Source: Nemertoderma westbladi
Taxonomy: Eukaryota > Animalia > Xenacoelomorpha
Direction of reading: 5' to 3'
Assembly (NCBI GenBank): GCA_032718475.1
Contig: JAUCBJ010000267.1
Coordinates: 45,664 to 109,663, forward strand
Length of the DNA: 64,000 bases
Under the pieces are notes generated by a model. That model saw nothing but the letters and a program-made list of their open reading frames with translations. It searched no databases and was not told where the DNA came from. Positions 11,480-41,984 of this stretch are shown in pieces; positions within the stretch are counted from its first letter, which is position 1; the number at the start of each line of letters is the position of its first letter. A program made the translations under genes and the position numbers.

Positions 11480-11487
11480 CCGCTCCA
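11480..11487 (-). promoter_or_regulatory. Short polypurine tract of element A (TGGAGCGG immediately before the 3' LTR)
   Basis: Plus-strand CCGCTCCA abuts the LTR. The same GGAGCGG|TG junction occurs in elements B and C. Confidence 0.7.
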
Positions 11488-11640
11488 AGGGAAATCATAT
11501 AATGTTTCCCTCCAATTGTAGAAGAGTATAAGGTGATGTATACAAAACAAAATAAATTTCTTCCAACCAATCTAAATAACATAATAATTCTACTATTTAC
11601 AAATATTGCCATAGATATTGCATAATGAATTACATACAAA

Positions 11641-13473: not shown

Positions 13474-13554
13474 CGGGTAACCTCCCTCGTTATATCTAAG
13501 GAATTGGTGAGCTGGACATCGCGTTAATATCGGTTCCGGATGTTGCTCGTCTAG

Positions 13555-20700: not shown

Positions 20701-22754
20701 CGGGTTAACAAATGGTTTAGTTCCGCAGGGTTATTAAGTCTGGTCCTTTCCCGGTGGTTCCAACTTACCTGCTCCGCGTCCGTCCTTCTTTCCTTATAGT
20801 TTCGGGACTTCTGACGTCTCATGTCTTCCTTTTCATCGCTTGACTCGGTGTCAGTCCTTAGCGCTCGCGATGGTTTGCGCGCCGAGGCCCTGATCCAAGC
20901 ATCCTCAATAAATTTCTCTGCCGAATTTTCGAAATTGGGATTATGGATATTCGGGACAGGCGTCCTTACCTGAGGTCTATGTGGTATAGTCTCCTCCGAT
21001 ATGCGTACTCGTTGACTAGGCTGGACTTTATCTAACTCAGGCCTGCTGGGATTAGAATTACTTCTTACCTGGGCTGCTTCCTTTAACCGTAGGTTGCTAA
21101 GCATGTCCGTTATAGGTTGGATGTGCGGCGATATAGCTTGCGCTAAACTAGCACTTAACTCATCCCTCGTAATAAATTCCTGGCTAGGGTTCTGTTGTAT
21201 AGTCGGCTCTATCTGAGTAATCCGCTGTCTCTCATATGATCCCTCTTCCGGTTTAACCCGGAAGTTCTCCGTCGAACTGGGTCGGCGCTCCGTCCGCGTA
21301 TTCCAAACCCTCGGGTTCGGTTCGCCAAATACTCGGCCCGTCGGAGTTTCTTCTCTAAATTCTCCGTTGTCACGTTCGGTATACAGTGGTGCGGTGTTCC
21401 GATGACGTAGATCCTGGGCGATAGGTGAAGCACTAATACCAACTGGCGTGCGATATGTAGAGAACGGTTTAACGATCCGTGTACTCGTAATAGCTGGACC
21501 GGGTATAGGAATTCTGGTCGTCGTCGACTCGCGTATAGCCGGAGTTCTCGCTTCCTGTTCGGCCTTCTGCAGTGCGAACAGTTCTCGCAACTCAGTCCCT
21601 ACACTCGCCCTACATTCTTCGATCATTCGCATCCCCTTCTCGGCGATTTCGTTCGCCTGGTTCGTCCGCTCGGCTTCCTTCCGTGCTTCCTGTGCACGCA
21701 AAACTTCCGCCTGCTGTTCGTCTAGTCGGCGTCTTCTCTCCTCCGCCGATTTGTGAGAAACAAGGGATCTAGCACATATTACTTTACCTCGCGCGTGACT
21801 AACCTGGGAATCGCCGCTGTCTCTAGATGCATCGTCGGGTGGAGTTAACGCCCTCTGTTGAATGTTCTCCGTCGTCGGTAGCACCTGACCTGGTACCACC
21901 ACTCCATTCTGCATCAGCCAGCTAGTAACTTCCCTCTGATAACGGCGCTCTTCCTTATCTTGGATCTCTTCTCGCTCCACTAAGTCTCTCAACTCTACGT
22001 CACTCACCTGAGTCGCCTGCGCTTGTGATGTCCATAGAAGCCAGTTCTCCGTCCTAACTCGTCGGAATCGCTCCGATAACTCGCGGTGCTCCAACAAGGC
22101 TGCTAAAACCCTGTCGTAAATCCTCGTCGCCACGTCGCTCGACTGAGACTCTACTGCCTTCTTCGCTAGGACTGCAAGCTCCTCCGTCTGCTTGAATAAC
22201 GCTGAGTTATATCCTCTTCTAATCTCTACTAACTCTACCCTCCCGATGTTCGCTGGGTCAGCTAACATTTTCCTTACCTTGTCCGCCGTCCGAGTTATAT
22301 GTCCGGCATGCGCGCGAAGTTTCTTCTTTATCGCGATATCGAACTCTCTATCACTCACCTGACTTACGCTCGGTGGACTTGAAGGATTATTTCGGGAACT
22401 ACGGGTACTCCTAACAGCCGTCGGAACCACGGCACTTACCATACCCACAGGTCTGGAAACCGGGCTCCGGGCTCTCGCTTCTGCTACACTACCCTCCCTA
22501 TCACTCACCTCTGTCCGGGCTGCCGTACAGTCCTTCCTATCAGTAGCGGTAGGGGATCCTAATACTATTACCTGAGGCTGCTGTTCTTCCTCACTAGTCA
22601 CTGTCTCGTCCTCCTGTTCACTTACGTCAGCGTCACTCGCTGCGTCGTCATAGTCGGCATTGTCATCAACAGTAATATTTACGCTATCGTCAGTCGGCGG
22701 TCCAGCCGCCGTCTCGTAGCTGTCCTCTAGTGCCTCTTTGTCTGAGACACTCAT
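17781..22754 (-). CDS. gag-pol: Element A gag-protease-RT (N-terminal half) polyprotein, 1657 aa
   Basis: BEL gag core (KFMGN...W..F...EKFNYL), triple Cys/His array (CQYC..H....C, CWACLAPGHVWRQC, CMECGRLHHKLLH), protease VMLDTAS, and RT motifs YYLPHH, KVRVVND and DIEAMFHQV. Confidence 0.95.
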   Translation of the reverse strand: MSVSDKEALEDSYETAAGPPTDDSVNITVDDNADYDDAASDADVSEQEDETVTSEEEQQPQVIVLGSPTATDRKDCTAARTEVSDREGSVAEARARSPVSRPVGMVSAVVPTAVRSTRSSRNNPSSPPSVSQVSDREFDIAIKKKLRAHAGHITRTADKVRKMLADPANIGRVELVEIRRGYNSALFKQTEELAVLAKKAVESQSSDVATRIYDRVLAALLEHRELSERFRRVRTENWLLWTSQAQATQVSDVELRDLVEREEIQDKEERRYQREVTSWLMQNGVVVPGQVLPTTENIQQRALTPPDDASRDSGDSQVSHARGKVICARSLVSHKSAEERRRRLDEQQAEVLRAQEARKEAERTNQANEIAEKGMRMIEECRASVGTELRELFALQKAEQEARTPAIRESTTTRIPIPGPAITSTRIVKPFSTYRTPVGISASPIAQDLRHRNTAPLYTERDNGEFREETPTGRVFGEPNPRVWNTRTERRPSSTENFRVKPEEGSYERQRITQIEPTIQQNPSQEFITRDELSASLAQAISPHIQPITDMLSNLRLKEAAQVRSNSNPSRPELDKVQPSQRVRISEETIPHRPQVRTPVPNIHNPNFENSAEKFIEDAWIRASARKPSRALRTDTESSDEKEDMRRQKSRNYKERRTDAEQVSWNHRERTRLNNPAELNHLLTRNDATLRDIGKFAARQGLPTQQPQKFMGNHKHWRTFRTYVDEQLTNSTFTPNEKFNYLLQMLHREPRAIADNFVGNERAFELAMKTLSDIYGNKTKMAQSIVEDLGKGGRITTPLELLNLANAISNALDILRTVNLPHHGDHAEVLKSVIRRLNMRYRQKWRKLENKLEGQGKVLTLQHIHDMIATDAVAEMKSNFSEENMRESKPVTGKSMVSFDDDRTTVTYNSVDRYNSNTPAFRSDSRVWSGERLDRPRLKQQELPDGFVGCQYCLLKEVRSDDHKLDSCRRFKELNSEQRRVQVRTLDTCWACLAPGHVWRQCPNSKDGCMECGRLHHKLLHADFHTPTDRYLQRNPHRKGSKEPVSIRRNTYTGIQDDGYQPGSSDEDGELSAREVTCQGFTADSSSTSARTYLSSATSEIFSVIPVKLTGDKGSKRIYVMLDTASTLSYIDEEVARAVSSFQDAEEIQIELKSMHGVGDLKGHRISVELDSLLPRDQHTRQERKALPLDGFKCLAMKGFGRQLGKVPPMSPIAQEYFDKLRIPRHQVGYRNVSMLIGAEQLIAHQIWETRPAEPHVNGPHAHRTILGWYTRVPMSYEFTGGDKPMDRYDELQPITQPPLVEPPDIDEFRRTCIDHYSDFSESDEELIPDNVRLSEPLHNDRTDSEPEDYCYQTRGSGSAAHATYLTNVLTYTEIVEGQVAKYRDLDIFQYSEEELQKELICQDLETGARTVEWLDRDAMEPGGYDLAMSTDEKRSLEMMEDTIRLLPTGHFEVGMLWRRQPPKLENNYSLALKRLNGVRARLLKNPDIREKYCAQINNYFAKGFAGKVEDPDLVTDQTYYLPHHYVTHPDKPDKVRVVNDCAAVYRGMSLNSELMDGPNLNNYLIGILLRFRQRRFAFTCDIEAMFHQVRACKADQDSLRFLWYENEDLSGPVVTYQMYVRIFGARDSPNGTLFVLKKTATAQIGKYPVEVIESIL

Positions 22755-23904
22755 AGTCTAAATAATATTTGCCTTCCGGCAAAAATCTCGCAAAAGTTCG
22801 AGATATAATTATAATTTAACCGAAATACGGTCAAATTATTTGTCAAATAATCAGTTGGTCCAAATGTCAAATAAATTCGCAATACAATATTGTGAATTTA
22901 ATGGGGTATATAGTTATAGCAAATACTAACACAATATTTAAACAAAAATATTATTATATAGCTACTATATAATATTAAATACCGGTATAGCACAAAATAA
23001 CTCTGAATCTAATACAAAATATTCAAAATAGACTTGCCACCCGAATATTTCCAATTTTATATATAGCTCTAATCAACGCAATTTTAGTTTCAAATATTAT
23101 ATGTATCCACTAGCGCGTGGCTACATCTTCGGGTTGCGACTCTCTCTAACTCTCTCTCTAACTTGAGCGATTCAAAAAAACCATGGCCGGCTAAACCTAA
23201 ATATCCTAACTAATAAATTGAGTTCAGCTTCGCAGTTAAACAACCGGTAATTTTTTACTGCTTCCACAAACACACTGGCGCCAACAGAACAACTAACCTT
23301 GTTTGCTGTGAGATTCCACGTCCGCGTCCAAAGATTCAGGCCCTTCGCTGATTGCAAACCGAACCCGCAGACCCACACGAACCCCAAACTCAGAAGTCCC
23401 GTCTTGCCATGTATCTCCAGATGGTATAAAATAACTAAGCGGTTACCTAACATACCGGTACAAAACTCTAGAATTTTACAAATAATTTTGACCGAAAACT
23501 GAATTCTCGCAAACCTAGCTAATAATTTTCAAAAACTTACTAATTACAATTTGCCCTAAGGCCTAAGGAACTGCTGTATTCGCAATTAGCAAAACGCACT
23601 ACCGTACATCCACTGTATGCAGTACAGTAAGTAAAACAGTACACCAACCTAACAGCCTAATGATACTGTGTGTGGTACGGCAAACAAATGTCCTTCTACC
23701 GTACGCAGTAACAGCAATCAGCCTAATGTACTACTGTACTAGTGTACGCAGCCAGTGAATACTCTATCTGCCTTACTGTACGCAGTACAGCAAAGCAATA
23801 CTGCACGTATCACTGATACAAAGTATCAGTGATCTAAACTAATAGCAGTCTAAACTAACAGCCTAAGAATACACTATTGACCGCTGCAAGCAACAGCCAA
23901 TAAT

Positions 23905-23914
23905 CACGTATCAC
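23905..23914 (-). promoter_or_regulatory. Element A primer-binding-site position (GTGATACGTG), complementary to its own LTR rather than TGG-type
   Basis: Immediately follows the 5' LTR on the minus strand. Exact reverse complement of the minus-strand LTR segment CACGTATCAC (24998-25007). Confidence 0.75.
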
Positions 23915-26100
23915 TGATAAACAACCGCGACCTCTATACTAACAGCAGAACTGTTGAACAGACCAATACCCGTTAATATCCTTCTGCCAACCTAATAAGT
24001 TCTCGTCTAACCAATAAGACACAAAGACTGCTCTACTGTTAAGTAAAGGGGCTCAGGAGCGTGATATTACTAAATTGTAAGGGTTGCTAAATACAAAACC
24101 GCTACTTACCGTTAGATGGCGCTAATCTGCCGTCCGCTAATATATTTACTAATTTTACACAACCAGACAACTCCTGCAAAATCGCTTGTTCCTTTCTCTA
24201 CCGATTGCTCAATAGAGAGCTAACTGTTCGAATCTATGAGCCACGCGGGAATAACCAAAACAATAAACCCGAGTCGGCTCCCTAAGCTTACTTAAGACGA
24301 GTGCGAGAGGCCTTGCACTCAGAGTATTCTTACGCCTAATTCTATCACTTATTAAAGCACGCTATTACCTACGTCTTTCTAATCGCGAATACTGGGGTTT
24401 CTCTAACGTAATGTGTGAATGCGAGAATATTTAAATATCAAAAATGGTACAGTAATTGTCTCTCGTGGATAGTACCACTCTGGGTCTAAAATTGCCTGCA
24501 GCTGGCTTTAGGCCAGCAAATCACTAGCGTTTCGTGCGTACCGAATAGTGCGTTCTAGCTGATTGCCCGCTAATGCGAATAACCGCTTAGCGTGAATAGT
24601 TTACAGTACTCTAATTATTACTTTAGCTACTCTCCGCTATGCTGCGTACTAATTCTTAATTTTACTAATCAATTACAGTCACAAATATTTAACAGCGTAC
24701 TAATTACTAAGAGTTCCAGAATACGTAATTCTAATTTATCACGCAACAGGTTTCGCTAGTAATAGCCTAAATTGCCGTATTACTTTGACCTAATCAGTAA
24801 CTAATTGTTGTAACTAAGAAATAGAAATCAATCAAAGAGAAAAGAGCGCCTACCTAAACATTCACAATCATAGGCACACTTCAGTAACACACCAATCAGC
24901 ATCAGCAATCACAGTTCGCAATTATGCAGTTAACTACTGTATAGCCCACAATTATGCGACTCACTATTCGTACTACACGCTCAACGTTCGAAACGTTGTG
25001 ATACGTGCAGGCCTCTCCCGGGTACATATAGGACTCCTAACTAACCTGATTCCCGCCCCCCTAATACTAAATAGAGACGAAACCTGGATCATCAGCCCCC
25101 TAATTGCCGTACCGGCGATTGGTCTGCGTACCACAGCGTTAACTTCCCGACCGCAACGGTGACCCCACGCCAGCGTTGCTCGCTTTGAATCCTCCGCTCT
25201 CCCTTAGTCGCCCAACCCCCCGATGTGCCCACCGCCCGCTGGCGCCTTAGCCCTCCATTACGCTAATAGCTACCGTAGCGGCGCATGCAAATCACAAAGT
25301 CTGACAGTCTCAGGAATCCCTTGGGATTATTGCGCAGAAAGGAATCACATAGAACCATCAATCAAAGGTAGAAATCATAGTTCGATTGTAATTTGCAGTA
25401 ATCGAAGGAATTATTGAGAAACACAAGCAAAGTAATCGCACTAGCAAATCATTCCAAGAAATTAATCAAATTAGCAAATTGCAGAAAATACGATATCCTA
25501 ATACAAATTAGAGACAGCTCAGCAAGTAAATTGTAACAGGGGTGTGTCATGTGAGTGAGAGATTGATGATAGGCTCTACCGGCACACCGCCAATTTATAG
25601 GTGATCCGGGTGGGATGATGCAATAGGGTGACTCAATCGCTCTCCTATTGGCTCTCCAGTCCATGCTAGCATTAGACCAACCTGGAAGCAGTTAATCCAA
25701 TAAGGAGGCAGGATTGTAGCCCTATGCCCTCAAATAATTACCATATATGGTAATGGATCACGTCTCTGGCTGCTGAATGGCCAGGACGGCGTCCCTATAT
25801 GCTAGCCCTATCAAACTAATATCAGCAAGCACAAAATCCAGGGTCCGAGTAAACTCGCTACCCTGGAACTATCTACATATATCCTAATACAAAATTACGT
25901 AGGTAGGGCTACATACTATACAAAATGAATGGATGCAAATATATGGGCGTTTTAACTTCCTTACCTAAATGTCACCACACTGCGCCTTATCTAAATAATT
26001 ATACTGCACAACGGACTAATATTACGTACAGTATAACGGACTAATACTGCATACTGCATAATGGACTAATACTGTGGATACAGCGCCATATACCGTAACA
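23915..26100 (-). repeat. Element A 5' LTR (2186 bp)
   Basis: Minus strand reads TGTTACGG...GTTTATCA. Direct repeat of 9302-11479. Confidence 0.97.
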
Positions 26101-29100
26101 GGGATGTTGGCGATCGGGTTTCATTGACATACTGTAATGACAGGGTCGGGGATGTTGGCGATCAGGTTTCATTGACATACTGTAGTGACAGGCTCGGGGA
26201 TGTTGGCGACCAGGTTTCATTGACATACTGTAGTGACAGGGTCGGGGATGTTGGCAATCAGGTTTCATTGACTTACTGTAATGACAGGGTCGGGGATGTT
26301 GGCGATCAGGTTTCATTGACATACTGTAGTGACAGGGTCGGGGATGTTGGCGATCAGGTTTCATTGACATACTGTAGTGACAGGGTCGGGATGTTGGCGA
26401 TCAGGTTTCATTGACATGTAGTGCAGTGACAGGGTCGGGGATGTTGGCGATCAGGTTTCATTGACATACTGTAGTGACAGGGTCGGGGATGTTGGCGATC
26501 AGGTTTCATTGACATACTGTAATGACAAGGTCGGGGATGTTGGCGATCACCTTTCATTGACATGCTGTAGTGACAGGGTCGGGGATGTTGGCGATCAGGT
26601 TTCATTGACATGTAGTGCAGTGACAGGGTCGGGAATGTTGGCGATCAGGTTTCATTGACATACTGTAGTGACGGTCGGGGATGTTGGCGATCAGCTTTCA
26701 TTGACATACTGTAGTGACTGGGTCGGGGATGATGGCGATCAGGTTTCATTGACATACTGTAGTGACAGGGTCGGGGATGTTGGCAATCAGGTTTCATTGA
26801 CATACTGTAGTGACAGGGTCGGGATGTTGGCGATCAGGTTTCATTGACATGTATTGCAGTGACAGGGTCGGGGATGTTCGCGATCAGGTTTCATTGACAT
26901 ACTGTAGTGACAGGGTCGGGGATGTTGGCGATCAGGTTGCATTGACATACTGTAATGACAAGGTCGGGGATGTTGGCGATCACCTTTCATTGACATGCTG
27001 TAGTGACAGGGTCGGGGATGTTGGCGATCAGGTTTCATTGACATGTAGTGCAGTGACAGGGTGGGGATGTTGGCGATCAGGTTTCATTGACATACTGTAG
27101 TGACGGTCGGGGATGTTGGCGATCAGGTTTCATTGACATACTGTAGTGACTGGGTCGGGGATGTTGACGATCAGGTTTCATTGACATACTGTAGTGACAG
27201 GGTCGGGTATGTTGGCGATCAGGTTTCATTGACATACTGTAGTGACAGGGTCGGTGATGTTGGCGATCAGGTTTCATTGACATACTGTATTGACAGGGTC
27301 GGGGATGTTGGCGATCAGGTTTCATTGAGATACTGTAGTGTAGTGACAGGGTCGGGGATGTTGGCGATCAGGTTTCATTGACATACTGTAGTATAGTGAC
27401 AGGGTCGGGGATGTTGGCGATCAGGTTTCATTGACATACTGTAGTGACAGGGTCGGGGATGTTGGCGATCAGGTTTCATTGACATACTGTAGTGACAGGG
27501 TCGGGGTTGTTGGCGATCAGGTTTCATTGACATAGTGCAGTGACAGGGTCGGGGATGTTGGCGACCAGGTTTCATTGACATACTGTAGTGACAGGGTCGG
27601 GGATGTCGGCGATCAGGTTTCATTGACATATGTGGTGACAGGGTCGGGGATGTTGGCGATCAGGTTTTATTGACATACTGTAGTGCAGTGTGACAGGGTC
27701 GGGGATGTTGGCGGCCAGGTTTTATTGACTACTGTAGTGCAGTGCGACAGGGTCGGGGATGTTGGCGATCAGGTTTCATTGACATACTGTAGTGACAGGG
27801 TCGGGGATGTTGGCGATCAGGTTTTATTGACATACTGTAGTGACAGGGTCGGGGATGTTGGCGATCGGATTTCATTGACATACTGTAGTTGACAGGGTCG
27901 GGGATGTTGGCGATCAGGTTTCATTGACATACTGTAGTGACAGGGTCGGGGATGTTGGCGATCAGGTTTCATTGACATACTGTAGTGACAGGGTCGGGGA
28001 TGTTGGCGATCAGGTTTCATTGACATACTGTAGTGACAGGGTCGGGGATGTTGGTGATCGGGTTTCATTGACATACTGTAGTTGACAAGGTCGGGGATGT
28101 TGGCGATTAGGTTTCATTGACATACTGTAGTGACAGGGTCGGGGATGTTGGCGATCAGGTTTCATTGACATACTGTAGTGACAGGGTCGGGGATGTTGGC
28201 GATCAGGTTTCATTGACATACTGTAGTGACAGGGTCGGGGATGTTGGCGATCAGGTTTCATTGACATACTGTAGTGACAGGGTCGGGGATGTTGGCGATC
28301 AGGTTTCATTGACATACTGTAGTGACAGGGTCGGGGATGTTGGCGATCAGGTTTCATTGACATACTGTAGTGACAGGGTCGGGGATGTTGGCGATCGGGT
28401 TTCATTGACATACTGTAGTTGACAGGGTCGGGGATGTTGGCGATTAGGTTTCATTGACATACTGTAGTGACAGGGTCGGGGATGTTGGCGATCACCTTTC
28501 ATTGACATACTGTAGCGACAGGGTCGGGGATGTTGGCGATCGGGTTTCATTGACATACTGTAGTTGACAGGGTCGGGGATGTTGGCGATTAGGTTTCATT
28601 GACATACTGTAGTGACAGGGTCGGGGATGTTGGCGATCAGGTTTCATTGACTACTGTAGTGCAGTGACAGGGTCGGGGATGTTGGCGATCAGGTTTCATT
28701 GACATACTGTAGTGACAGGGTCGGGGATGTTGGCGATCAGGTTTCATTGACTACTGTAGTGCAGTGACAGGGTCGGGGATGTTGGCGATTAGGTTTCATT
28801 GACATACAGTAGTGACAGGGTCGGGGATGTTGGCGATCAGGTTTCATTGACTACTGTAGTGCAGTGACAGGGTCGGGGATGTTGGCGATCAGGTTTCATT
28901 GACATACTGTAGTGACAGGGTCGGGGATGTTGGCGATCAGGTTTCATTGACTACTGTAGTGCAGTGACAGGGTCGGGGATGTTGGCGATCAGGTTTCATT
29001 GACATACTGTAGCGACAGTCGGGGATATTGGCGATCAGTTTTCATTGACATACTGTAGTGACAGGGTCGGGGATGTTTGCGATCAGGTTTCATTGACTAC

Positions 29101-30488
29101 TGTAGTGCAGTGACAGGGTCGGGGATGTTGGCAATCAGGTTTCATTTACTACTGTAGTGCAGTGACAGGGTCGGGGATGTTGGTGACCAGGTTTCATTGA
29201 CATACTGTAGTGACAGGGTCGGGGATGTTGGCGATCAGGTTTCATTGACATACTGTAGTGACAGGGTCGGGGATGTTGGCGATCAGGTTTTATTGACTTA
29301 CTGTAGTGACAGGGTCGGGGATGTTGGCGATCAGGTTTCATTGACATACTGTAGTGACAGGGTCGGGGATGTTGGCGATCGGGTTTCATTGACATACTGT
29401 AATGACAGGGTCGGGGATGTTGGCGATCAGGTTTCATTGACATACTGTAGTGACAGGCTCGGGGATGTTGGCGACCAGGTTTCATTGACATACTGTAGTG
29501 ACAGGGTCGGGGATGTTGGCAATCAGGTTTCATTGACTTACTGTAGTGACAGGGTCGGGGATGTTGGCGATCAGGTTTCATTGACATACTGTAGTGACAG
29601 GGTCGGGGATGTTGGCGATCAGGTTTCATTGACATACTGTAGTGACAGGGTCGGGATGTTGGCGATCAGGTTTCATTGACATGTAGTGCAGTGACAGGGT
29701 CGGGGATGTTGGCGATCAGGTTTCATTGACATACTGTAGTGACAGGGTCGGGGATGTTGGCGATCAGGTTTCATTGACATACTGTAATGACAAGGTCGGG
29801 GATGTTGGCGATCACCTTTCATTGACATGCTGTAGTGACAGGGTCGGGGATGTTGGCGATCAGGTTTCATTGACATGTAGTGCAGTGACAGGGTCGGGAA
29901 TGTTGGCGATCAGGTTTCATTGACATACTGTAGTGATGGTCGGGGATGTTGGCGATCAGGTTTCATTGACATACTGTAGTGACTGGGTCGGGGATGATGG
30001 CGATCAGGTTTCATTGACATACTGTAGTGACAGGGTCGGGGATGTTGGCGATCAGGTTTCATTGAGATACTGTAGTGTAGTGACAGTGTCGGGGATGTTG
30101 GCGATCAGGTTTCATTGACATACTGTAGTGTAGTGACAGGGTCGGGGATGTTGGCGATCAGGTTTCATTGACATACTGTAGTGACAGGGTCGGGGATGTT
30201 GGCGATCAGGTTTCATTGACATACTGTAGTGACAGGGTCGGGGATGTTGGCGATCAGGTTTCATTGACATACTGTAGTGACAGGGTCGGGGATGTTGGCG
30301 ATCAGGTTTCATTGACATACTGTAGTGACAGGGTCGGGGATGTTGCCGATCGGGTTTCATTGACATACTGTAGTTGACAGGGTCGGGGATGTTGGCGATT
30401 AGGTTTCATTGACATACTGTAGTGACAGGGTCGGGGATGTTGGCGATCAGGTTTCATTGACATACTGTAGTGACAGGGTCGGGGATGT
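26101..30488. repeat. 48-bp tandem satellite, block 2
   Basis: Same monomer. It resumes in register after the GGGAT TSD. Confidence 0.98.
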
Positions 30489-30536
30489 TGTAAAAGCTTT
30501 TGCGTAATTAGCCGGTTATTTTCCCCGTAAAGTACT

Positions 30537-31722
30537 TGTAAAAGCTTTTGCGTCATTAACCGGTTATTTTCCCTTAAAGTACTCTGTAGTTGGTTTGCCA
30601 GGCATAAAAAGGCCGTGTCCTTGCTGTACTGGTGTTTTAGAGGACATAAAAGTCATTTCTTATGTATTTGTACTGTATTTGTACTTTAGAGGACATAATC
30701 CACAATCTCGTGACGCGATAAGCTAGATACTCTTGAAAACAGTGTCGCTACCATGACGATGGCTAACAGCTGATATTGCCACGTCGACGTTTCTTTGTTT
30801 CTTTGTTCTCTCGTTGTTCGGTTGACCAATCAGAGCGTTTGTTGTCTCTGTGTTGGAGGTGTATACAGAGGCTCAGTAGTTCAGTGTTATGTTTTTGCCC
30901 AGAGCCTAAGAACCGGCTTTTGGCACCTCCGTGTTTTCAGTTTTTAGTCTTACACTAGTAGGCTTAATTATAAGGACATATATCCGTTATCATAACATAA
31001 CTAAACATAACATACCATACCTAATCAAACAACCTGTGCATACTTTTATATTGTTATACTGCTATTTACTGTCAGTTCTTCATAATATGGTTGATGAATT
31101 ATTATATTTGGAATAACGATAAATAACCCCGAAAACCCAATATTCTTGATATACCGAAGGTAAGAGAGAAAGGTTACATATAACGATTGTGACTTATGTT
31201 AAAGTGGTTTAAAGTGAATCTAATGTTATTTGATAGACCCTACATGATTCGGTCCGTGTTCCTTTTATATGTGACTAAAATCAGTGAAGATCGGCAGATC
31301 AGTGTGCAGTATTGTGCAGCATTGTGTATGAGTGAGACTGATAACGAAGCATTTCCTAAAGAATGCGCCATATATGTGAATTGTAACTAAGCCATATCGT
31401 TGTGAGTAGTTTAAGTCATAACTCTGTTTATATAGATAGAGCGCCACGTCCTAAAGGAACTGTTAATATTTCCCGAAGGTGAATAATATTGTCAGAGATT
31501 ATATAATACTGTCAGTCGAATAATACATTAGGCTTACATAGCAATAAGATTAAGCCGTCGAACCCAATCTCCCGGGTATATCCAGCGGGTGAATGATCGC
31601 GCACAGATTGGTTTCGACTAGTGTAGTGAATCAAATACTTGTCATAGGCTAAAAGTAATTTATTATCTAGAAGACATCCTAATTTGGCGGGTTAAACTGC
31701 CAAAGGTCTGAAAGCGCGAACA
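30537..31722 (+). repeat. Element B 5' LTR (1186 bp)
   Basis: TGTAAAAGC...GCGCGAACA, repeated at 38334-39519 with about 3 visible substitutions. Confidence 0.96.
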
Positions 31723-31733
31723 ATAACGGATAT
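31723..31733 (+). promoter_or_regulatory. Element B primer-binding-site position (ATAACGGATAT), complementary to its own LTR
   Basis: Exact reverse complement of LTR segment ATATCCGTTAT at 30980-30990. Confidence 0.8.
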
Positions 31734-32074
31734 TTAGTCTGTATTGCAGTGTAGGCATTAAATACAGTTTAATATTGTTCTGGTAAGAACAATAACGGAT
31801 ATAGCTTCTGTATTGCAGTAGGCAATAAAGCTGAAGTACCGGCAACCGGTACCCAGTAGGCCTGACTACCTAACCACCCGGACCGGTACATACAGCAGTA
31901 CAGGTACAGCAGTATTATTCGATTTTGATAATTATATACCGGTAGGCCTTAATAATTAATCAGGGACTGCAGCCCTGGTTTTTTATTGAGATTTTTACTT
32001 ATTTCTGTCAAGTTTTATTTGTTTGTAGGCCAGTATTGAACAGAAGGCGTGTAAGTCTGATCAGATTGTACAGA

Positions 32075-32640
32075 CAATTTGTAGGCTGAGCTGTTGTCTG
32101 ATTGCTGTTAAGTCCGAACGGATTGCAGTGTGTGTAGAGCCTCTGTCCGATAAAGAACGGTTAGGAAGTAGGGGCAGCCAAAGCTGTAAGGTAAACCCCC
32201 AACTAAAGAATAAGTCGTACTACTGGGTTAGAACGCATACTACCTAATCATTTCGGAGTCTGCATGTCCTGTAGTTTATTTAGGCTTGAGAGTAGTCTGC
32301 CATCGTTTAGTCTGTACTTTGTTTGTGTAGTCTGTACAGGTAGCGTATAATATTTATTTAGATAATTTGTAGGCTGGATAGTTGTCTGGCTGTTATTAGG
32401 TCTGAACGGATTGCAGTGTGTGTAGAGCCTGTCCGATAAAGAACGGTTAGGAAGTAGGGGCAGCCAAAGCTGTAAGGTAAACCCCCATCTAAAGAATAAG
32501 TCGTACTACTGGGTTAGAACGCATACTACCTAATCATTTCGGAGTCTGCATGTCCTGTAGTTTATTTAGGCTTGATAGTAGTCTGTCAGTATTTGGTCTG
32601 CATTTTGTTTGAGTGGTTTGTACGCGTAGCGTAATATTTA
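32075..32640 (+). repeat. About 290-bp tandem duplication in the 5' leader of element B
   Basis: Two copies begin AATTTGTAGGCTG at about 32075 and 32363. The same duplication is present in C at about 40925-41500. Confidence 0.8.
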
Positions 32641-33953
32641 TTATTCAGAGTTTATGCGATTATTTGCCACATTCATTCCCCAAGTTTGTTCCTACAGTAA
32701 TTGTGTTTGTTATACATACCGCTATAGTTAAATTAACCCCGGTACTACACGGGCTGCTTGGCGTAGGTAAAGACTGGTGATTTTGTGCACCGGTCACTCC
32801 AGCAGATGCCGTGGTTCTTTTAACTGTTCAAGTATATTTAACTACTGATTATATGTTGTACAAGTACTCGTACCTAATTTAGGGTTTAGTGTACAGTGCT
32901 TTCCGAAAGTAATTAGTGTAGGCATTATATTTGTGTTGTAAAGTGGTTGATAGGCACGTTCGATTAGCTCTATTAACTTCTAGGTAGGGACACTCCGTGA
33001 TACATAACGTAGTACCTATATCGATACGGCTATAGGTCGTCAGGCGGTGGTATTTTCCTATCTGGACAACGCAGTGTATTTACTACTACGTATTATTTTC
33101 AAATAACCGCAGTACCCTGTCCGTTGTAATAACCAGATTTCTAACCCTTTGTTAGGCTGGTTTGTAGACTTCTTGTAAAATTACCCTGAAAATTTGTATT
33201 TTGTGTTTTTGTAAATTTTTGTGTTTATTTAGAGATTGTAATCTCACCCGAATTGTACGTAATTTGTAGTATTAAGTAACTTAGGTAAATTAGAATTATT
33301 TGTTTTAGTGTCCTATAAGTAACACTTCACTGAAAGCGCACCGCTTTGTGTAGTGATTACTCCCCAGAAATAATAACATTTATTTCAAACATTGACAAAA
33401 CCCATTAAACGGATATATATATATTATAAATCAACTCAAACGATTTATAAATAGTAGGCCTGCCATATAACAATTAGGTCTCAATATCAGTTGGACTACT
33501 GCTTAAATAACGGTAATAAAGTAAGTTAAAGTAACCAAGTAACCTTAAAATTCAGAAATTCAATTATTTAAAATAATTGATATACAGGTATCCACGATAG
33601 GCCTATTATATATTTATATTTGTGCTGAAATCATACCGGTATTCTGTAATTAATTCTAGTTAATAATTATACTTATATATCCTATAAGTGTAAACTGTAT
33701 ACCGGTATCCACGATAGGCCTATTATATATTTATATATATTTGTACTAAAATTATATACCGGTTTCTGTGAAAAACCTAGTCTGTAATAATACTTATATA
33801 TACTATAAGCATACCGGTATTCTAATATTATATATATCACGCTACACTGAGTAGCAGTATCGGTAATTAATTACTAGGCTAGCAGTTAATACTGAATTAC
33901 TAGACTTGCTTAGACTGTAATATAGCAGTAGACATTCAACTGTGTAAACAAAC

Positions 33954-36887
33954 ATGTCTGATACTAAGCATAACCTGTCAGACAGTTTATTAGATGTAAC
34001 TATCTGCGACTCAGATAGAGGTGTAGAACCGTCTAGTCCTAAGTTCAGTTCACCTCCCACTGTGAGGAAGGTCATCCCTCCAGTAGTAATAACAGAACCT
34101 AGGCTGGTCCAACATCGTAGGTCTATCATAGGCACTCGAGCCCAGGTCAAGCGGGACCAAGAAGCAGCGGAACAGCAACAACCCGCGAGCCAAGAACTTA
34201 TTTCTCAGCGGCCCAACAGCTCCAGTAGTGAGGATACTGTAGAGCTGACACCCGAGCGCGGAGCAAAGATGACGGATGCGGTTTATTCGGATCCCCTTCT
34301 CATCCTTCCTGCAGCCGTACTCACTAGGTTATTGATCGCGGTGGAAGAACACCAGATCGATTGGGCGAGAAGTAAGCGCTCAACTAAAGATAGTTATGAG
34401 GGATACACAAGGGAAGAACTGAAGTCTATGGTCGAGTCGCAATGGAACTTCCCCGGACCCGGACTCCCGTTTGATTTATCAGAAGCGGCCTGGGAAGACA
34501 TACACCGGATGGGAGTAGCCAAGGAAACCATCGATCCAGCTGTGTGGAAGAGGTCCGCAGCCGGATACGCACAGGGATTCTTCAGCTCTATGGAGCGAGT
34601 AAAAGAACAACTGTTTCAACAACCTCATGGACCTCAAGAGCAGGGACAACTGCTTTATCAAGTTAGAGAAAGAATTCTGCGAATCAGGCTAATATTATCA
34701 GCCTTTGAAGAGGCTTCTAAAAGAAGACAAGACACGTCGTTGCAAGTTGCCGTAAAGACTTGGTTTCAACGGGTGAGTCGCCAGGTTCAAGGAACAGCTC
34801 AGTGGAAAGCTCAGCTGGAGGAGCGGCGCTCAACCCATGGAGAATCAACAGACGCTACTTTTTCCCAAGTGGAAAGTGAAGCGACGGCAGAGAAGCCGCA
34901 TAAGAGGGATGCCATTGACATCGATCTGTCAGACTATCAACGTTTTTTAGGTGATGACGAGTTGAGGAGAAGGTTAGAGGGGCTTAGCCCTAATAGTGAA
35001 GGAACCAAGCTTGTGCTGGATGCCATCGATGTGGAAATGAGAGCTGCGAACCAGGCTAAATTTGATGAACAACTCCGCATCACACGAGTCCAAGAAGAAC
35101 AAGTAAAGAAAAAACGTATAGAAGACAGAAAGGCAGCAGCAGTAGCCGCAGCAGTGGCAGCTGCAGAAGTAGAAAGAAAAGCGGCAGTGGCAGAGGCAGC
35201 GGCAGAGGCAAAAGCGGCAGCGGCAGAGGCAAAAGCGGCAGAAGCAGAAAGAAAGGCGACAGTGGCAGCGGCCGAAGCGGAAAGAAAAGCAGCAGAGGCA
35301 GTGGCAGAAGCAGAACGGAGAGCGGCTGAAGAAACCACCCAATTAGAATTGGAAAACATTCAGGAGAATCAAGACTGCATAAATAAACAGTTAACAGCTA
35401 GTAATATGCAGATGATGAATCGATCTACTCCCAAAAGACAGGGATATACATCATCTGAGGAAGGCGATACCACCGATACTGAAGGCAAAGGAAATAGATC
35501 TCGTCTAAGCAGACGTAAAAGAACATCCCACCGTCAGAAATTGCCTGATTTGCCTCCAGCTGTTAGAAGGCAACTAAATAACACCAACTTAGGTAGTACA
35601 GAACCCACAGACCAAATAATTAAAATAGAAAGACTCCCTACTATAGTAGATGAGCCTGAAATAATTAGGCCTGTTCTTGAAATCACCCCTTCGGTGATAG
35701 ACACACCTGTGCTCCCTGAAACTACCTCTAAATTCCCTCTGCACAGCACTAAGCTACCTGTGCCCAGTAGAACAGCCCATGAGACAGTTCAGGTCCTGGA
35801 CCCCGAGCGAGATATTCATGATTTGTCGCCCGTTGCCCCTCGTCCGCCCGCTACAACGTTGGCGACTCCCGCTTCGGCGGTCGAATGGGTGGACGAGAGA
35901 CGGCGGGGGATGGATCTCCTGCTCGGGCAGATGCAGGAGACTGTTCAGCAATTCAAGGGCACAGTAAGGGAAAGTAGACTAGAGTTGCAAGAAGTGCAGC
36001 AAAGTATCGCGCTAGAACGCGATAAATTAGTGAACACACAAAAGGGTATACCACCACCCCCTGTAACAATGTGTCAACCCGTTAGGTCTGAAGTATCCCA
36101 TGCGCAAGGTGTGGAGCCTACACGCATCTATACTGCTAGCGAAGTAGAAACTCCTATAGTAAACCCTATTAAGGGTAATTATAAACCTGTTGATAATGAT
36201 ATCTCATCTAGACTTGATAATAATCCGAGAAACTTATATACCGATAATTCTCTATTCAATAATACGATGGCTCAAGAAAGTTTTACACGCCAAATGGCTA
36301 GAACTGAAGCCCGACAAGCGGTAAAGGTTGGAGAGATCGTCAAGTTCAATGGAGATGAGATGAAATGGTTACCTTTTAATGAATATTACAAAGATAACAT
36401 ACAGAACTCCGTGTTATCTAACGGAGAAAAGCTTAGATTCCTCATCGAGTGCTTGGAAGGATCTCCCAAGTTAATGGCGTTAAAGTTTATTGGACATCCA
36501 GATGGATTAAGACAAGTTTGGGATACAATAAACATCAGGTATGGTAATAGGACTAACATAGCTAGGTATTTGTATGCAAAATTAATGGCGCCCCGAAAGT
36601 TTCTTAGCAGCGGGATTATAGAGTTTTCCGACGAAATTCAGGAGATCTGTAGACAGCTAGATTGGTTAGGTAAGTCTCATGAATACCAGAATTCTATGGT
36701 TGTAGGAGCCTTAGCATCAACTCTGCCAAAGGGTGGAGTAGGTACACGCTGGGACAAGACAGTGTTATATATGATGGAACAACAACGACGAGACCCTACC
36801 ATGGCTGATCTCATGTCATTCTTGGATGGCGAAGTGAAATTACAGCTCATAAAGCAGTCCAGAGAGAAGACACCGGAAAACAATTAA
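33954..36887 (+). CDS. gag: Element B gag (977 aa), truncated by a deletion before the zinc knuckles
   Basis: Highly similar to the N-terminal part of 43715-48406, with BEL gag core KFNGDEMKWLPF...EKLRFL. A junction at about 36884 skips sequence present in C. Confidence 0.9.
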   Translation: MSDTKHNLSDSLLDVTICDSDRGVEPSSPKFSSPPTVRKVIPPVVITEPRLVQHRRSIIGTRAQVKRDQEAAEQQQPASQELISQRPNSSSSEDTVELTPERGAKMTDAVYSDPLLILPAAVLTRLLIAVEEHQIDWARSKRSTKDSYEGYTREELKSMVESQWNFPGPGLPFDLSEAAWEDIHRMGVAKETIDPAVWKRSAAGYAQGFFSSMERVKEQLFQQPHGPQEQGQLLYQVRERILRIRLILSAFEEASKRRQDTSLQVAVKTWFQRVSRQVQGTAQWKAQLEERRSTHGESTDATFSQVESEATAEKPHKRDAIDIDLSDYQRFLGDDELRRRLEGLSPNSEGTKLVLDAIDVEMRAANQAKFDEQLRITRVQEEQVKKKRIEDRKAAAVAAAVAAAEVERKAAVAEAAAEAKAAAAEAKAAEAERKATVAAAEAERKAAEAVAEAERRAAEETTQLELENIQENQDCINKQLTASNMQMMNRSTPKRQGYTSSEEGDTTDTEGKGNRSRLSRRKRTSHRQKLPDLPPAVRRQLNNTNLGSTEPTDQIIKIERLPTIVDEPEIIRPVLEITPSVIDTPVLPETTSKFPLHSTKLPVPSRTAHETVQVLDPERDIHDLSPVAPRPPATTLATPASAVEWVDERRRGMDLLLGQMQETVQQFKGTVRESRLELQEVQQSIALERDKLVNTQKGIPPPPVTMCQPVRSEVSHAQGVEPTRIYTASEVETPIVNPIKGNYKPVDNDISSRLDNNPRNLYTDNSLFNNTMAQESFTRQMARTEARQAVKVGEIVKFNGDEMKWLPFNEYYKDNIQNSVLSNGEKLRFLIECLEGSPKLMALKFIGHPDGLRQVWDTINIRYGNRTNIARYLYAKLMAPRKFLSSGIIEFSDEIQEICRQLDWLGKSHEYQNSMVVGALASTLPKGGVGTRWDKTVLYMMEQQRRDPTMADLMSFLDGEVKLQLIKQSREKTPENN

Positions 36888-37154
36888 TTATTATGTCAAT
36901 AAAACGCCTAAAGACCAGGTAAGTAAATTCAAGTCTCTAACCAATGACAGGAGAGAACAGGTAAGAAAAACTCCTCCTACGTCTCCCAAGAGAATTCAGG
37001 TGAGAAAGCCCGAGGAAAGAACGAACGTACACCACACAGCACATGTTAAAGTAAGTAACATCAAGCCCAAATGTGTGCTGTGCGATGGGCCCCACCGTTT
37101 AAATGCGTGTGATAAATTCCTGAGGAAATCACTAAAGGATAGACGTGAAGTCAT

Positions 37155-37862
37155 GTGGGAAACATAGAAACATATCTCAATATTGCCAGTCAACAAAATA
37201 TAGAAACTCGATATCCTCAAGGTATACATCATGACCGCATGGTAGAACTCAAACGGATCGATTCCCCTATGATGTATCTTACCGCCGATCGACCGCTACC
37301 TGTTGTACCGAATAGCTTCGAACGGATGGAGGAATATTGTAAGCTGGAGAAAGATCACTCGCGTTTCCCCTACAAGACGTACGTTTTTGGGTATTATTGC
37401 GATGAATGCCCAAGACCCAACCAACAAACGGAAAGACGTAAACATCCGCGGAGACGTTGCTTTAAACACGGTTTTACTCGCTATACTTACGGGAGTTTCG
37501 AGCGAAACTTGTTCAATGTATCACCTACGCTCGTTCGACTCAGACGATCCTTAAATAAACCAATGATCAGAGTTTCGGAATACTCGATCAGAGCTCCTCA
37601 TTCCCTAATGAGACCTCAGACTCTTGATCCTATTAGTATGACGGATCCTCCCGAGCTGTACTCACTGCTCAAAGATCTGGTGTTGCCTGAACGATTGGTC
37701 GGTGGCACCCCAGTTGTGGGTTTCTTAGATATTAGCCCATCCTACCTAGCCGGATTGGGACGCGGACATTTAATATCGCCGTTTAACCCTTACCATCGTC
37801 CCGGCTTGACACAATATAACCTGTCACCAGAGTGGCGGAGAACGTTGTACCAAACGAGTTAA
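37155..37862 (+). CDS. Element B accessory ORF (5' end removed by the gag/accessory deletion junction near 37160), homologous to 13555-14043
   Basis: ETRYPQ...MMYLTADRPLPVVPNSFERMEEY...YYCDEC. A degenerate copy is present in C at about 50050-51150. Confidence 0.65.
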   Translation: MGNIETYLNIASQQNIETRYPQGIHHDRMVELKRIDSPMMYLTADRPLPVVPNSFERMEEYCKLEKDHSRFPYKTYVFGYYCDECPRPNQQTERRKHPRRRCFKHGFTRYTYGSFERNLFNVSPTLVRLRRSLNKPMIRVSEYSIRAPHSLMRPQTLDPISMTDPPELYSLLKDLVLPERLVGGTPVVGFLDISPSYLAGLGRGHLISPFNPYHRPGLTQYNLSPEWRRTLYQTS

Positions 37863-38333
37863 ACGCTATTCTACAAAGATCAGAAAGGAAACCTACGTTT
37901 GTTCAGATAAACGTAAGTTGTAACAGCAAGTCCAAGCGATAAACGAATTGTCTTTATCTCAGTTCGATTGTGAAATCCAGAATCTCTAAGAAGATATCGC
38001 ACTTAGACAACCCCATTCTCTGCGAGAGTTTTTGGATGAACGTATCCAGCTACGAGCGGAGGAAAATCAGCTCGAGGAGAAGCATATCGAAACGGCGGAT
38101 ACCCCTACCATAATCCTACACCTTCTGATGCAATCATATTGCACCCTTCACCCAGGATTTATAGCCCTCCTAGTAAAGTGGCTCCCCCCAAAGAGAAAAG
38201 GACTCTTGCTAGCCTCAAAAAACTGCGTAAACGCCGTCTGCGTAAGAAAGACTAACTGTTTAGAGTATTTTTATATTTTAGAAACTGTGATTTGTTATAT
38301 TTTATAGACTTAAATCCCATTTTCTGGGAGCGG

Positions 38334-39519
38334 TGTAAAAGCTTTTGCGTCATTAACCAGTTATTTTCCCTTAAAGTACTCTGTAGTTGGTTTGCCAGGC
38401 ATAAAAAGGCCGTGTCCTTGCTGTACTGGTGTTTTAGAGGACATAAAAGTCATTTCTTATGTATTTGTACTGTATTTGTACTTTAGAGGACATAATCCAC
38501 AATCTCGTGACGCGATAAGCTAGATACTCTTGAAAACAGTGTCGCTACCATGACAATGGCTAACAGCTGATATTGCCACGTCGACGTTTCTTTGTTTCTT
38601 TGTTCTCTCGTTGTTCGGTTGACCAATCAGAGCGTTTGTTGTCTCTGTGTTGGAGGTGTATACAGAGGCTCAGTAGTTCAGTGTTATGTTTTTGCCCAGA
38701 GCCTAAGAACCGGCTTTTGGCACCTCCGTGTTTTCAGTTTTTAGTCTTACACTAGTAGGCTTAATTATAAGGACATATATCCGTTATCATAACATAACTA
38801 AACATAACATACCATACCTAATCAAACAACCTGTGCATACTTTTATATTGTTATACTGCTATTTACTGTCAGTTCTTCATAATATGGTTGATGAATTATT
38901 ATATTTGGAATAACGATAAATAACCCCGAAAACCCAATATTCTTGATATACCGAAGGTAAGAGAGAAAGGTTACATATAACGATTGTGACTTATGTTAAA
39001 GTGGTTTGAAGTGAATCTAATGTTATTTGATAGACCCTACATGATTCGGTCCGTGTTCCTTTTATATGTGACTAAAATCAGTGAAGATCGGCAGATCAGT
39101 GTGCAGTATTGTGCAGCATTGTGTATGAGTGAGACTGATAACGAAGCATTTCCTAAAGAATGCGCCATATATGTGAATTGTAACTAAGCCATATCGTTGT
39201 GAGTAGTTTAAGTCATAACTCTGTTTATATAGATAGAGCGCCACGTCCTAAAGGAACTGTTAATATTTCCCGAAGGTGAATAATATTGTCAGAGATTATA
39301 TAATACTGTCAGTCGAATAATACATTAGGCTTACATAGCAATAAGATTAAGCCGTCGAACCCAATCTCCCGGGTATATCCAGCGGGTGAATGATCGCGCA
39401 CAGATTGGTTTCGACTAGTGTAGTGAATCAAATACTTGTCATAGGCTAAAAGTAATTTATTATCTAGAAGACATCCTAATTTGGCGGGTTAAACTGCCAA
39501 AGGTCTGAAAGCGCGAACA
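38334..39519 (+). repeat. Element B 3' LTR
   Basis: Preceded by PPT-like GGGAGCGG and followed by TSD GTACT. Confidence 0.96.
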
Positions 39520-39524
39520 GTACT

Positions 39525-40621
39525 CTGTAGTTGGTTTACTGGGCATAAAAAGGCCGTGTCCTTACTGTACTGGTGTTTTAGAGGACATAAAAGCCATTTC
39601 TTCTGTATTTGTACTTTAGAGGACATAATCCGCAATTTCGGGACGCAATAAGCTCGATACTCTTGAAAACAGTGTCGCTACCATGACGACGGCTAACAGC
39701 TGATATTGCCACGTCGACATTTCTTTGTTTCTTTGTTCTCTCGTTGTTCGGTCGACCAATCAGAGCGTTTTTGTCTCTGTGTTGGAGGTGGATACAGAAA
39801 CTCAGGAATTCAGTGTTATGTTTTTGCCCAGAGCCTAAGAACACCGGCTTTTGGCACCTCCGTGTTTCAGTCTTTAGTCTTACATTAGTAGGCTTAATTA
39901 TAGAACGTATATCTGTTATCGAGTTACCTTATCAATGCTTACTAAACATATCATGCATATCTTACTTAACATTACTGCTTTTGCTGTCGGTTATTCATTA
40001 TATTTGTTGATGGAAGATTATATTTGGAATACTGATCAATAGTCAGACACCCAACCTTCTTGATATACTAAAGGTTAGAGAGACCGGTTACAGATAAACG
40101 ATTGCGACCTATGTTAAGTGGTTTGAAGTGAATCAAATGCTATTTTATAGGCCCTACATGTATTGTCTGTTATTCTCTTTGTATGTGACTAAAATTAGTG
40201 AAGGTCGGCAGATTGGTGTGCAGCATTGTGTATGATTGTGACTGATAACAAAGCATCTCCTAAAGAATGCGCCATATACGTGAATCTATAGCCTTTTCGT
40301 TGTGTCTAGTTTAAGTCATAACTCTGTTTACATATTTAGAGCGCCACGTCCTAAAGGAACTGTTAATATTTCCCGAAAGTGAATAATATTTGTCAGAGAT
40401 TATATATTACGATCAGTCGAATAATACGGTAGGCTTACACCATCAATCATTAAGTTCCGAATTCAGTCTCCCGGGTATATCCAGCGGGTGAATGATTGCG
40501 CATAGACTGGCTTCGGCTAATGTAGTGTATCAAATACTCGTCATAGGCTAAAGACTATATATCATCCAAAAGACATCCTAATTTGCAGGTTAAACTGTCA
40601 AAGGTCTTAAAAGCGCAAACA
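39525..40621 (+). repeat. Element C 5' LTR, distal part (the first 48 bp lie at 30489-30536)
   Basis: Joining 30489-30536 to 39525 onward reproduces the sequence starting at 51576. It ends AAGCGCAAACA, like B's AAGCGCGAACA. Confidence 0.92.
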
Positions 40622-40632
40622 ATAACAGATAT
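40622..40632 (+). promoter_or_regulatory. Element C primer-binding-site position (ATAACAGATAT), complementary to its own LTR
   Basis: Exact reverse complement of ATATCTGTTAT at 39909-39919, with a compensatory change relative to element B. Confidence 0.8.
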
Positions 40633-41984
40633 TGCTTCTGGATTGCAGTGTAAGCAATCTAGTCTAAAGTACCGGTACCGGTCGAACGGTAACCTGTACT
40701 GCTGTAACCAGTAGGCCTGACTGCCTGATCATCCGAACCGGTACTTACAGTACAGGTACAGCAGTATTATTCGATTTTTATAATTATATACCGGTAGGCC
40801 TTTATAATTAATCAGGGACGGCCGCCCTGGTTTTTTATTGAGATTTTACTTGTTTCTGTCAAGTTTTATTTATTTGTAGGTTAGTATTGAGCAGAAGGCG
40901 TGTAAGCCTGCTCAGATTGTACAGATAATTTGTAGGCTTGACTGTTGTCTAACTGTTGTTAAGTCTGAACGGATTGCAGTGTGTGTAGAGCATCTGTCCG
41001 ATGAAGTGCTAGTTAGGAAAGTAGGGGCTTCAAGTGCTGTGAGGTAAACCCCCTGTGAAAGAATAAGTCGTACTACTGGGTTAGAACGCATACTAACTAA
41101 TCATTTCGGAGTCTGCATATACTGTAGTGTATTTGGGCTTGATAGTAGTCTGCCATCGTTTGGTCTGTACTTTGTTTGTGTAGTCTGTACGGGTAGCGTA
41201 TAATTTTATTTAGATAATTTGTAGGCTGGATAGTTGTCTGGCTGTTGTTGGGTTTGAGGAAATTTCGGTGTGTGTAGAGCATCTGTCCGATAAAGTGCTA
41301 GTTAGGAAAGTAGGGGCTTCAAGTGCTGTGAGGTAAACCCCCTGTGAAAGAATAAGTCGTACTACTGGGTTAGAACGCATACTAACTAATCATTTTGGAG
41401 TCTGCATATACCGTAGTTTGTTTAGGCTTGATAGTAGTCTGTCAGTATTTGGTCTGCATTTTGTTTGAGTAGTTTGTACGCGTAGCGTAATATTTATTAT
41501 TCAGAGTTTATGCGATTATTCGCAACATTCATATCCCCAAGTTTATTCCTACAGTAATTGTGTTTGTTATACATACCGTTATAGTTAAACTAACCCGGTA
41601 CTACATCAGGGCTGCTCGGCGTAGGTAAAGACTGGAGATTTTATGCTTTGGTCACTCCGGCAGATACCGTGGTTCTTTTAGCTGTTCAAGTATTTTTAAC
41701 TACTAATTATTTGTCGTACAAGTACTTGTACCTAATTTAGGGTTTAGTGTACTGTACTTTCCGAAGGTGATTAGTGTGTAGGCAGTATATTTGTGTTGTA
41801 AAGTGGTTAATAGGCACGTTGGTTCTGGTAGACCGCGGTAATTAATCTCTAGGTAGGAACACTCCGTGATACATAACGTAGTACCTATAGCGATACGGTT
41901 ATAGGTCGTCAGACGGTGGTATTTTCCTATCTGGACAGCGCAGTATATTTACTACTACTTATTATTTTCAAATACCGTAGTAAC

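Follow-up and report, generated by a model that had tools for sequence, protein, structure and literature searches.

The window, by which we mean the whole stretch of 64,000 nucleotides of Nemertoderma westbladi DNA analysed here, holds a 48-bp satellite array with three BEL/Pao retrotransposons, referred to as A, B, and C.

4-9301, 26101-30490, and 52214-54666, no strand: 48-bp satellite array, host of A, B, and C
9302-26100, minus strand: element A, a BEL/Pao LTR retrotransposon with TG...CA LTRs and a 5-bp target duplication, inside the satellite
23915-26100, minus strand: 5' LTR of A, 2186 bp
30489-52209, plus strand: element C, BEL/Pao, of the same family as B
30537-39519, plus strand: element B, a BEL/Pao derivative with LTRs at 30537-31722 and 38334-39519 that are 99.8% identical

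Element A encodes, in this order, DUF1759, Peptidase_A17, Integrase_H2C2, and DUF5641 (Pfam) which agrees with the gag-PR-RT-RH-IN order of BEL/Pao elements; within its pol, a stop codon occurs at 17781-17783 and the frame changes near 16503-16555. The order is partial in B, where DUF1759 is the sole domain of a gag-type ORF (33948-36887) and an RT or integrase match is absent, and in C, whose ORF at 43709-48406 has the gag domain (DUF1759) and the RNase H region as a fragment only. TG...CA LTRs, a polypurine tract, and a 5-bp target duplication complete the BEL/Pao features in A and B, while the right end of C is truncated. The 3' LTR of A (11479-9302) is 99.5% identical to its 5' LTR over 2086 aligned bases. 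By its position, B, flanked by its own 5-bp target duplication, is nested within the 5' LTR of C, which is interrupted by it (30489-30536 and 39525-40621); the 3' LTR of C (51576-52209) is truncated. Between B and C, identity is 84% for the LTRs and 93% for the gag-type ORFs. In a homologue search, the closest named proteins were from coral and abalone (38-40%).

A and C were inserted about two bases apart within the satellite unit and on opposite strands (26101-26105, 9297-9301, 30482-30488), and the final seven letters of their polypurine tracts are common to both; satellite targeting by A and C is possible. Behind pol, A has two additional ORFs of 186 and 526 aa (11974-14115, minus strand), for which Pfam gave no match at E 0.001. 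The leader of C carries an 867-bp insert (41985-42851) that ends in inverted repeats and is flanked by an 8-bp target duplication; we take it to be a hAT-like non-autonomous DNA transposon. Further tandem arrays lie at 59440-61073 (50-bp units) and 61713-62101 (13-bp units). AATAAA and ATTAAA are missing from the sense strand of both LTRs 23915-26100 and 30537-31722.

Primer-binding sites of A, B, and C

By sequence, the putative primer-binding site (PBS) of A, B, and C is complementary to a stretch of the element's own LTR instead of to the end of a tRNA.

24998-25007, minus strand: putative self-primer core of A, intron-less; 10 nt with the first PBS, 13 nt from 25010 with the second PBS
23905-23914, minus strand: PBS of A, adjoining the LTR CA, with no tRNA-type TGG site
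23801-23813, minus strand: second PBS copy of A, behind a CA, with a 13-nt complement and preceded by a small hairpin
30980-30990, plus strand: putative self-primer core of B, 11 nt, intron-less
31723-31733, plus strand: PBS of B, behind the LTR CA; second copy at 31792-31803 with a 12-nt complement
39909-39919, plus strand: putative self-primer core of C, 11 nt, with a two-sided change relative to B
40622-40632, plus strand: PBS of C, behind the LTR CA

In each element, the PBS begins directly behind the LTR-terminal CA, and its complement in the own LTR measures 11 nt in B and C and 10 nt in A; comparable LTR complements were found for 0.03-0.2% of internal k-mers. A single two-sided change (G-C to A-T) distinguishes the PBS and core of B from those of C. 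None of the three elements has a TGG-type (tRNA-type) PBS, and no tRNA genes were found within the window. A, B, and C share with Tf1-type elements the combination of at least 10 nt behind the 5' LTR that are complementary to the own LTR and the lack of a TGG site. Where LTR ends were not known, a blind scan for contiguous complements anchored on CA proved too noisy.

The 13-nt pairing of the second PBS of A runs through the sole nearby CA. Both A (23801-23833, minus strand) and B (31774-31803), with their unrelated LTRs, have a duplicated unit of LTR end plus PBS; in both, a small hairpin in front of the second unit covers the CA and the first PBS bases, and the second copies pair with the primer 1-3 nt further than the first copies. 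The first five PBS letters of B (31723-31727) and C (40622-40626) are those of the Tf1 PBS. Donor-like sites are present downstream of the primer at 24964 in A and 31160 in B, and introns may therefore exist downstream of the primer.

Relatives and a core assembled by splicing

An alignment of the RNase H region served to collect relatives: of the 549 metagenome stretches that matched, 80 were obtained, along with 24 genome-bin contigs; many of the fetched stretches lacked a readable LTR-PBS junction. We chose 19 self-type families by eye and by scan, i.e. not blind, and used 19 TGG-type loci as controls, leaving out near-duplicates (L001, L007, L016, L028, L075) and unresolved families (L032, L033, L035, L059, L061, L063, L072, L077, L085). 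The 24 contigs with BEL/Pao elements in prokaryote genome bins (L081-L104) point to animal host DNA in these bins. No relatives were found by the scan among viral contigs.

All 19 self-type families have a 10-15-nt complement between PBS and LTR (18 families in the control run, L045 in the scan), while self-complementarity was at most 8 nt in 19/19 TGG-type loci over 7 offsets. In 18 of the 19 self-type families, the core complement is formed solely across a GT-AG intron of 66-697 nt. The exception, L002, has a contiguous core like A, B, and C and was, among the matches listed, the closest row to A in a quick RNase H tree. In this tree, A formed a long branch outside any starred group, the TGG-type loci fell mostly outside the clade of A and the spliced families, and the label L007 denotes a neighbouring element. 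The PBS starts with GT in A and in all 19 relatives. PBS letters vary among 21 lineages, each tracking its own LTR at the exact LTR end and across splice junctions, and at the level of sequence we regard the PBS-LTR complementarity at this position as documented. The primer 3' end is AC in 19/19 relatives and in A and AT in B and C; the conserved AC would fit a cleavage site.

A conserved C-A-N triplet and a second complementarity upstream of the core

Sixteen of the 19 relatives have an A two bases ahead of the first paired base (p 4e-8); the base before this A is C in 12/19 and a pyrimidine in 16/19, and an A one base further up occurs in 0/19. CA at 10-13 nt from the primer end was found in 15/19 relatives, with 4.0 expected, including 4/4 of the later-found families; CA at 42-45 nt was found in 3/19. 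With BBCABW and YYANWYY as strings that we take to be initiator consensuses, the full BBCABW is present at the conserved A in 4/19. TATA at 25-32 nt ahead of the conserved A (3/19 versus 0.74 expected) was the best window in a scan, and a GT signal lies 29-30 nt ahead of it. B has the triplet, C has CG at this position, and A does not fit.

30977-30979, plus strand: C-A-N triplet of B, a bulge or rival transcription start, with the A at 30978, 2 nt before the core
30943-30956, plus strand: upstream arm of the predicted second helix of B, including TTAGT at 30944-30948 and complementary to the leader at 31748-31762
39872-39886, plus strand: upstream arm of the predicted second helix of C, including TTAGT at 39874-39878 and complementary to 40647-40654 and 40664-40669

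In the relatives, beyond C-A-N, the upstream LTR shows renewed complementarity to the leader that follows the PBS, with the register fixed at +3. At offset +3, 59 of 133 positions form Watson-Crick pairs versus 33 expected (z 5.2), which is above all 20,000 swaps over 13 offsets. Eleven thinned families gave 32 pairs versus 19.4 expected (p 0.0006), and the four later-found families 13/28 pairs versus 6.7 (p 0.009; p 0.08 over 13 offsets). Likewise by duplex energy, the own upstream 30 nt favours the own leader over foreign leaders (p 0.0001), while the leader gave no signal against the first 30-50 nt after the primer, i.e. the R side (p 0.96, 0.32). Of the slices above the core, those at 1-20 and 11-30 nt carry the signal and that at 21-40 nt has lost it; measured from the primer end, the second complementarity generally reaches ~41-45 nt. 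L050 and L045, with a reach of 56-59 nt, account for a further patch at 41-60 nt. L050 has, 43-56 nt upstream of the primer end, a perfect and near-collinear 14-bp complement to its leader, the longest such stem seen. The own leader ranked first in 6/19 relatives, the helix has no fixed end, and it is absent in several families (L023, L088); the second helix is not universal across families. An anchored gapped alignment with G-U scoring had little power. In the relatives, we consider the splice-junction core, the conserved C-A-N, and the second complementarity in +3 register established as features of the sequences.

In the window, the predicted second helix of B lies 34-47 nt away from the primer end; its duplex p against shuffles is 0.008. 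When compared with foreign leaders at 50 nt, the own leader came first among 20 in both B and C, and C alone gave p 0.15 at 40 nt. For A, a second helix was not above control (p 0.23; rank 7-9 of 20). When 871 nt of B were folded as a single strand, the PBS partner was sequestered locally, so that this fold is no test of the second helix.

Spacing of TTAGT from the primer end

The original prediction noted a constant spacing of 43-44 nt between a TTAGT and the primer end in all three elements and proposed, as speculation, that TTAGT may be the initiator and that the primer could be a paused or short capped Pol II RNA or a nuclease-processed 5' fragment.

25040-25044, minus strand: TTAGT of A, with its A at 25042, 44 nt ahead of the primer end

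The distances are exact: from the A of TTAGT to the end of the primer segment there are 44 nt in B (30946 to 30990), 43 nt in C (39876 to 39919), and 44 nt in A (25042 to 24998, minus strand). The LTR sequences of A and B are indeed unrelated. Because the LTRs of B and C are 84% identical and belong to one family, there are just two independent spacing points. Matched 5-mers are frequent in unrelated families: some 5-mer is common at matched distance ±1 in 38/136 independent family pairs (21% of shuffles) and at exactly matched distance in 16/136 (7% in shuffles). Conservation of the spacing beyond chance is therefore not borne out. The LTR of A contains 15 copies of TTAGT; upstream of the one in question lie a GC box at 25058 and CCAAT at 25122. 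In B and C, a TCAGT lies 7 nt further upstream of TTAGT (B: 30939).

Extended to further families, the fixed distance failed: T[CT]AGT at 42-46 nt was found in 0/19 self-type relatives, with 0.35 expected. At the same position, YYANWYY was found in 0/19 and BBCABW in 3/19 versus 1.35 expected. AGT with its A at 42-46 nt is present in 7/19 relatives versus 2.25 expected (post hoc p 0.004), outside the top 25 of 5632 blind tests, and in 2 of these 7 relatives a pyrimidine directly precedes the A. As a weak signal at about the originally predicted position, GT at -31/-32 from the core edge is present in 11/19 relatives; 0/60 shifted sets were as high, and the value is near the null's 5th percentile. 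The GT of A, B, and C lies at -34, -33, and -32, and the letters behind GT are TATA-like in some relatives only. The position of the GT/AGT residue is perhaps non-arbitrary. Two other promoter arrangements were rejected. Drosophila-type Inr-DPE promoters combine a TCAKTY-like initiator with RGWYV at +28; relative to TTAGT, the RGWYV-like letters of B are off position and C and A have none there, by a Drosophila consensus that may not be the host's. TATA-like words nearer the primer (32 nt from the end in A, 21 nt in B) would place the starts inside or behind the primer and are mutually inconsistent.

A primer in the form of a paused or short capped RNA is contradicted by the relatives. Because the polymerase has to traverse the intron of 66-697 nt, which must be removed before the primer forms, a paused RNA is excluded in the spliced families; a primer end at most ~60 transcribed nt from the start without processing is not found in 18/19 relatives; for the intron-less A, B, and C, this argument is indirect.

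A model for priming and its alternatives

Our working hypothesis, to which we give only slightly less than even chances, is that the BEL/Pao elements described here self-prime with a nuclease-cut piece of 5' RNA that starts at least ~30 bases upstream of the core and forms two helices flanking a C-A-N bulge. Specifically, the transcript would begin upstream of the CA, at least some 30 bases ahead of the core; the 10-15-base core would pair with the PBS and the upstream stretch with the leader, with C-A-N bulging out between them; the primer 3' end would presumably result, as it does for Tf1, from cleavage by the element's own RNase H; and the bulged A would act as the stop point for plus-strand copying of the primer. 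In tRNA, it is the modified A58 that halts plus-strand copying. We infer that the pairing forms in RNA and that the transcript starts upstream of the bulge. One continuous RNA strand is the simplest explanation for a small bulge of fixed size between collinear helices; the start would then lie upstream of the CA, and this in turn would give ordinary first exons of ~38 nt: for the 18 spliced families, first-exon length is 37-40 nt if the start is at 44 and 5-10 nt if it is at the CA. Drosophila first exons have a median of 233 nt in the data described in PMC4889658.

The second complementarity, as read from the sequences, favours a long, nuclease-cut primer of near the length originally predicted, i.e. 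longer than that of Tf1, and the primer may comprise ~40 bases or more. This part of the prediction gains from the upstream complementarity in +3 register to ~41-45 nt and loses from the initiator-like CA 2 nt before the core in 12/19 relatives, and a Tf1-like start at this CA would be a strong rival. In B and C, TTAGT falls at the predicted second helix's distal end; that it lies at or near their start is conceivable but rather unlikely, and it is not a family rule. More generally, we tentatively consider, with appreciable doubt, that in a whole clade within BEL/Pao a capped, usually spliced, and nuclease-cut RNA of ~40-60 nt mimics a tRNA primer by means of a core helix of 10-15 bp, a conserved bulged A that stops copying, and a leader helix, with the intron-less A, B, and C starting at or near TTAGT.

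Contigs from one sequencing run, presumed to be of RNA, are unable to show starts and left the LTR of A uncovered at 24856-25310. On the LTR of B, they comprised one C-like contig at 30666-30991, with a depth of 6-8 before and 40-120 after ~31057, and a GT-AG joint was absent.

Among the alternatives, it is possible, if doubtful, that the primer is short as in Tf1. The transcript would then start at the conserved CA, the primer would be its first 12-17 nt, the element at -30 (TTAGT; GT/TATA in relatives) would be a promoter in TATA position, and the second helix would be formed by the 3' copy of U3, cyclising the RNA as CYC5-CYC3 does in Ty1. The CA positions documented above are as expected for such a start, as are TATA at a fitting distance in 3/19 relatives, GT 29-30 nt ahead of the A, and the CA of B (30977-30978); the GC box of A would fall at ~-45 to -50. 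Pyrimidine-purine accounts for ~85% of insect starts, with TATA 20-40 nt upstream, in the account of PMC8011201, and Ty1 is described to pair a site downstream of its PBS with its own 3' end (PMC4974528). However, first exons of just 5-10 nt would be required in 18/18 spliced families, the pairing would end two bases before the supposed cap, A fails to fit, and the fixed +3 register, natural for one continuous strand, would be unexplained with a distant partner.

It appears improbable to us that the primer derives from the 3' LTR copy after splicing, or is supplied in trans by a second RNA, so that U3 and core are in one strand. The element's own transcript would start at the CA, and the unspliced partner would be the strand-transfer template and keep the intron. 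While this would account jointly for the initiator-like CA, the collinear but variable second helix (to 56-59 nt), and intron retention, it requires a cut close to the 3' end and two RNAs that are spliced differently yet act together, and splicing favours cap-proximal introns according to PMC4889658. We consider it very improbable that the complementarity is structural or regulatory and the primer some tRNA fragment or small RNA, given that the PBS of 21 lineages follows the own LTR at its exact end and across splice junctions. Finally, the strict version of the original prediction, with a TTAGT initiator at 43-44 nt and a paused or short capped Pol II transcript as primer, draws on the exact spacing in A and B and the excess of AGT in the relatives and is hardly tenable in view of two independent points in the window, T[CT]AGT in 0/19 relatives, a pyrimidine before the A in 2/7 AGT, and the intron that must go in 18/19.

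Comparison with known systems

To our knowledge, self-priming has been established experimentally solely for short 5'-terminal primers of the Tf1 type. A literature search of sources other than subscription journals and Repbase reports found no paper on self-priming in BEL/Pao elements; survey supplements may list PBS types. What appears new here, judged by sequence, is the C-A-N before the core and the second complementarity behind the PBS in +3 register. If true, a primer with two helices and a bulge would show how both ends of the PBS are set in an element that lacks tRNA modifications, and it would make replication dependent on host splicing and on the choice of start site. Between the two leading models, the predicted transcript starts are 30 nt apart.

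Tf1/Tf2, Tj1, and the Tf1/sushi group are described as lacking a tRNA PBS and using ~11 nt of LTR-derived RNA complementary to a site behind the 5' LTR, and in Tf1 extra duplexes flank the central one (PMC7175516, PMC10085805, PMC4600332). RNase H of Tf1 cuts between bases 11 and 12 (PMC7175516); the initial 11 bases of the transcript act as primer, and the LTR sequence engaged in the two extra duplexes lies downstream of them (PMC10085805). As in these accounts of Tf1/Tf2/Tj1, the elements studied here have a complement of the own LTR right behind the 5' LTR, no tRNA PBS, and an extra duplex predicted beside the core. In contrast to Tf1 as described there, the leader has its second complementarity upstream of the core, and no signal was seen over the first 30-50 nt of the R side. 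They also differ from Tf1 in belonging to the BEL/Pao superfamily, in the conserved C-A-N gap, and in the intron-split core in 18/19 relatives. Members of the Tf1/sushi group have a Ty3/gypsy chromovirus-type pol; Pfam and the homologue search gave BEL/Pao and no chromodomain, and A, B, and C would therefore be elements that, by their sequence, work like Tf1 in self-priming outside the Tf1/sushi group.

For the TAR (Houba, Osr-1; Ty1/copia) and Tcn1 plant lineages, self-priming was predicted from LTR-PBS complementarity of at least 10 nt, as reported in PMC6317226; they likewise have LTR-PBS complementarity but belong to other superfamilies. In Ty1, the sequence downstream of the PBS (CYC5) pairs with the other RNA end (CYC3), which is described as required for initiation (PMC4974528). 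This pairing downstream of the PBS is similar, but Ty1 is tRNA-primed and, in that description, has no collinear register with a self-primer. The tRNA-primed BEL/Pao elements with a TGG PBS have DUF1759, Peptidase_A17, integrase, and DUF5641 in common with A and are set apart by the length of self-complementarity, which is at most 8 nt in 19/19 loci compared to 10-15 nt in the self-type relatives.
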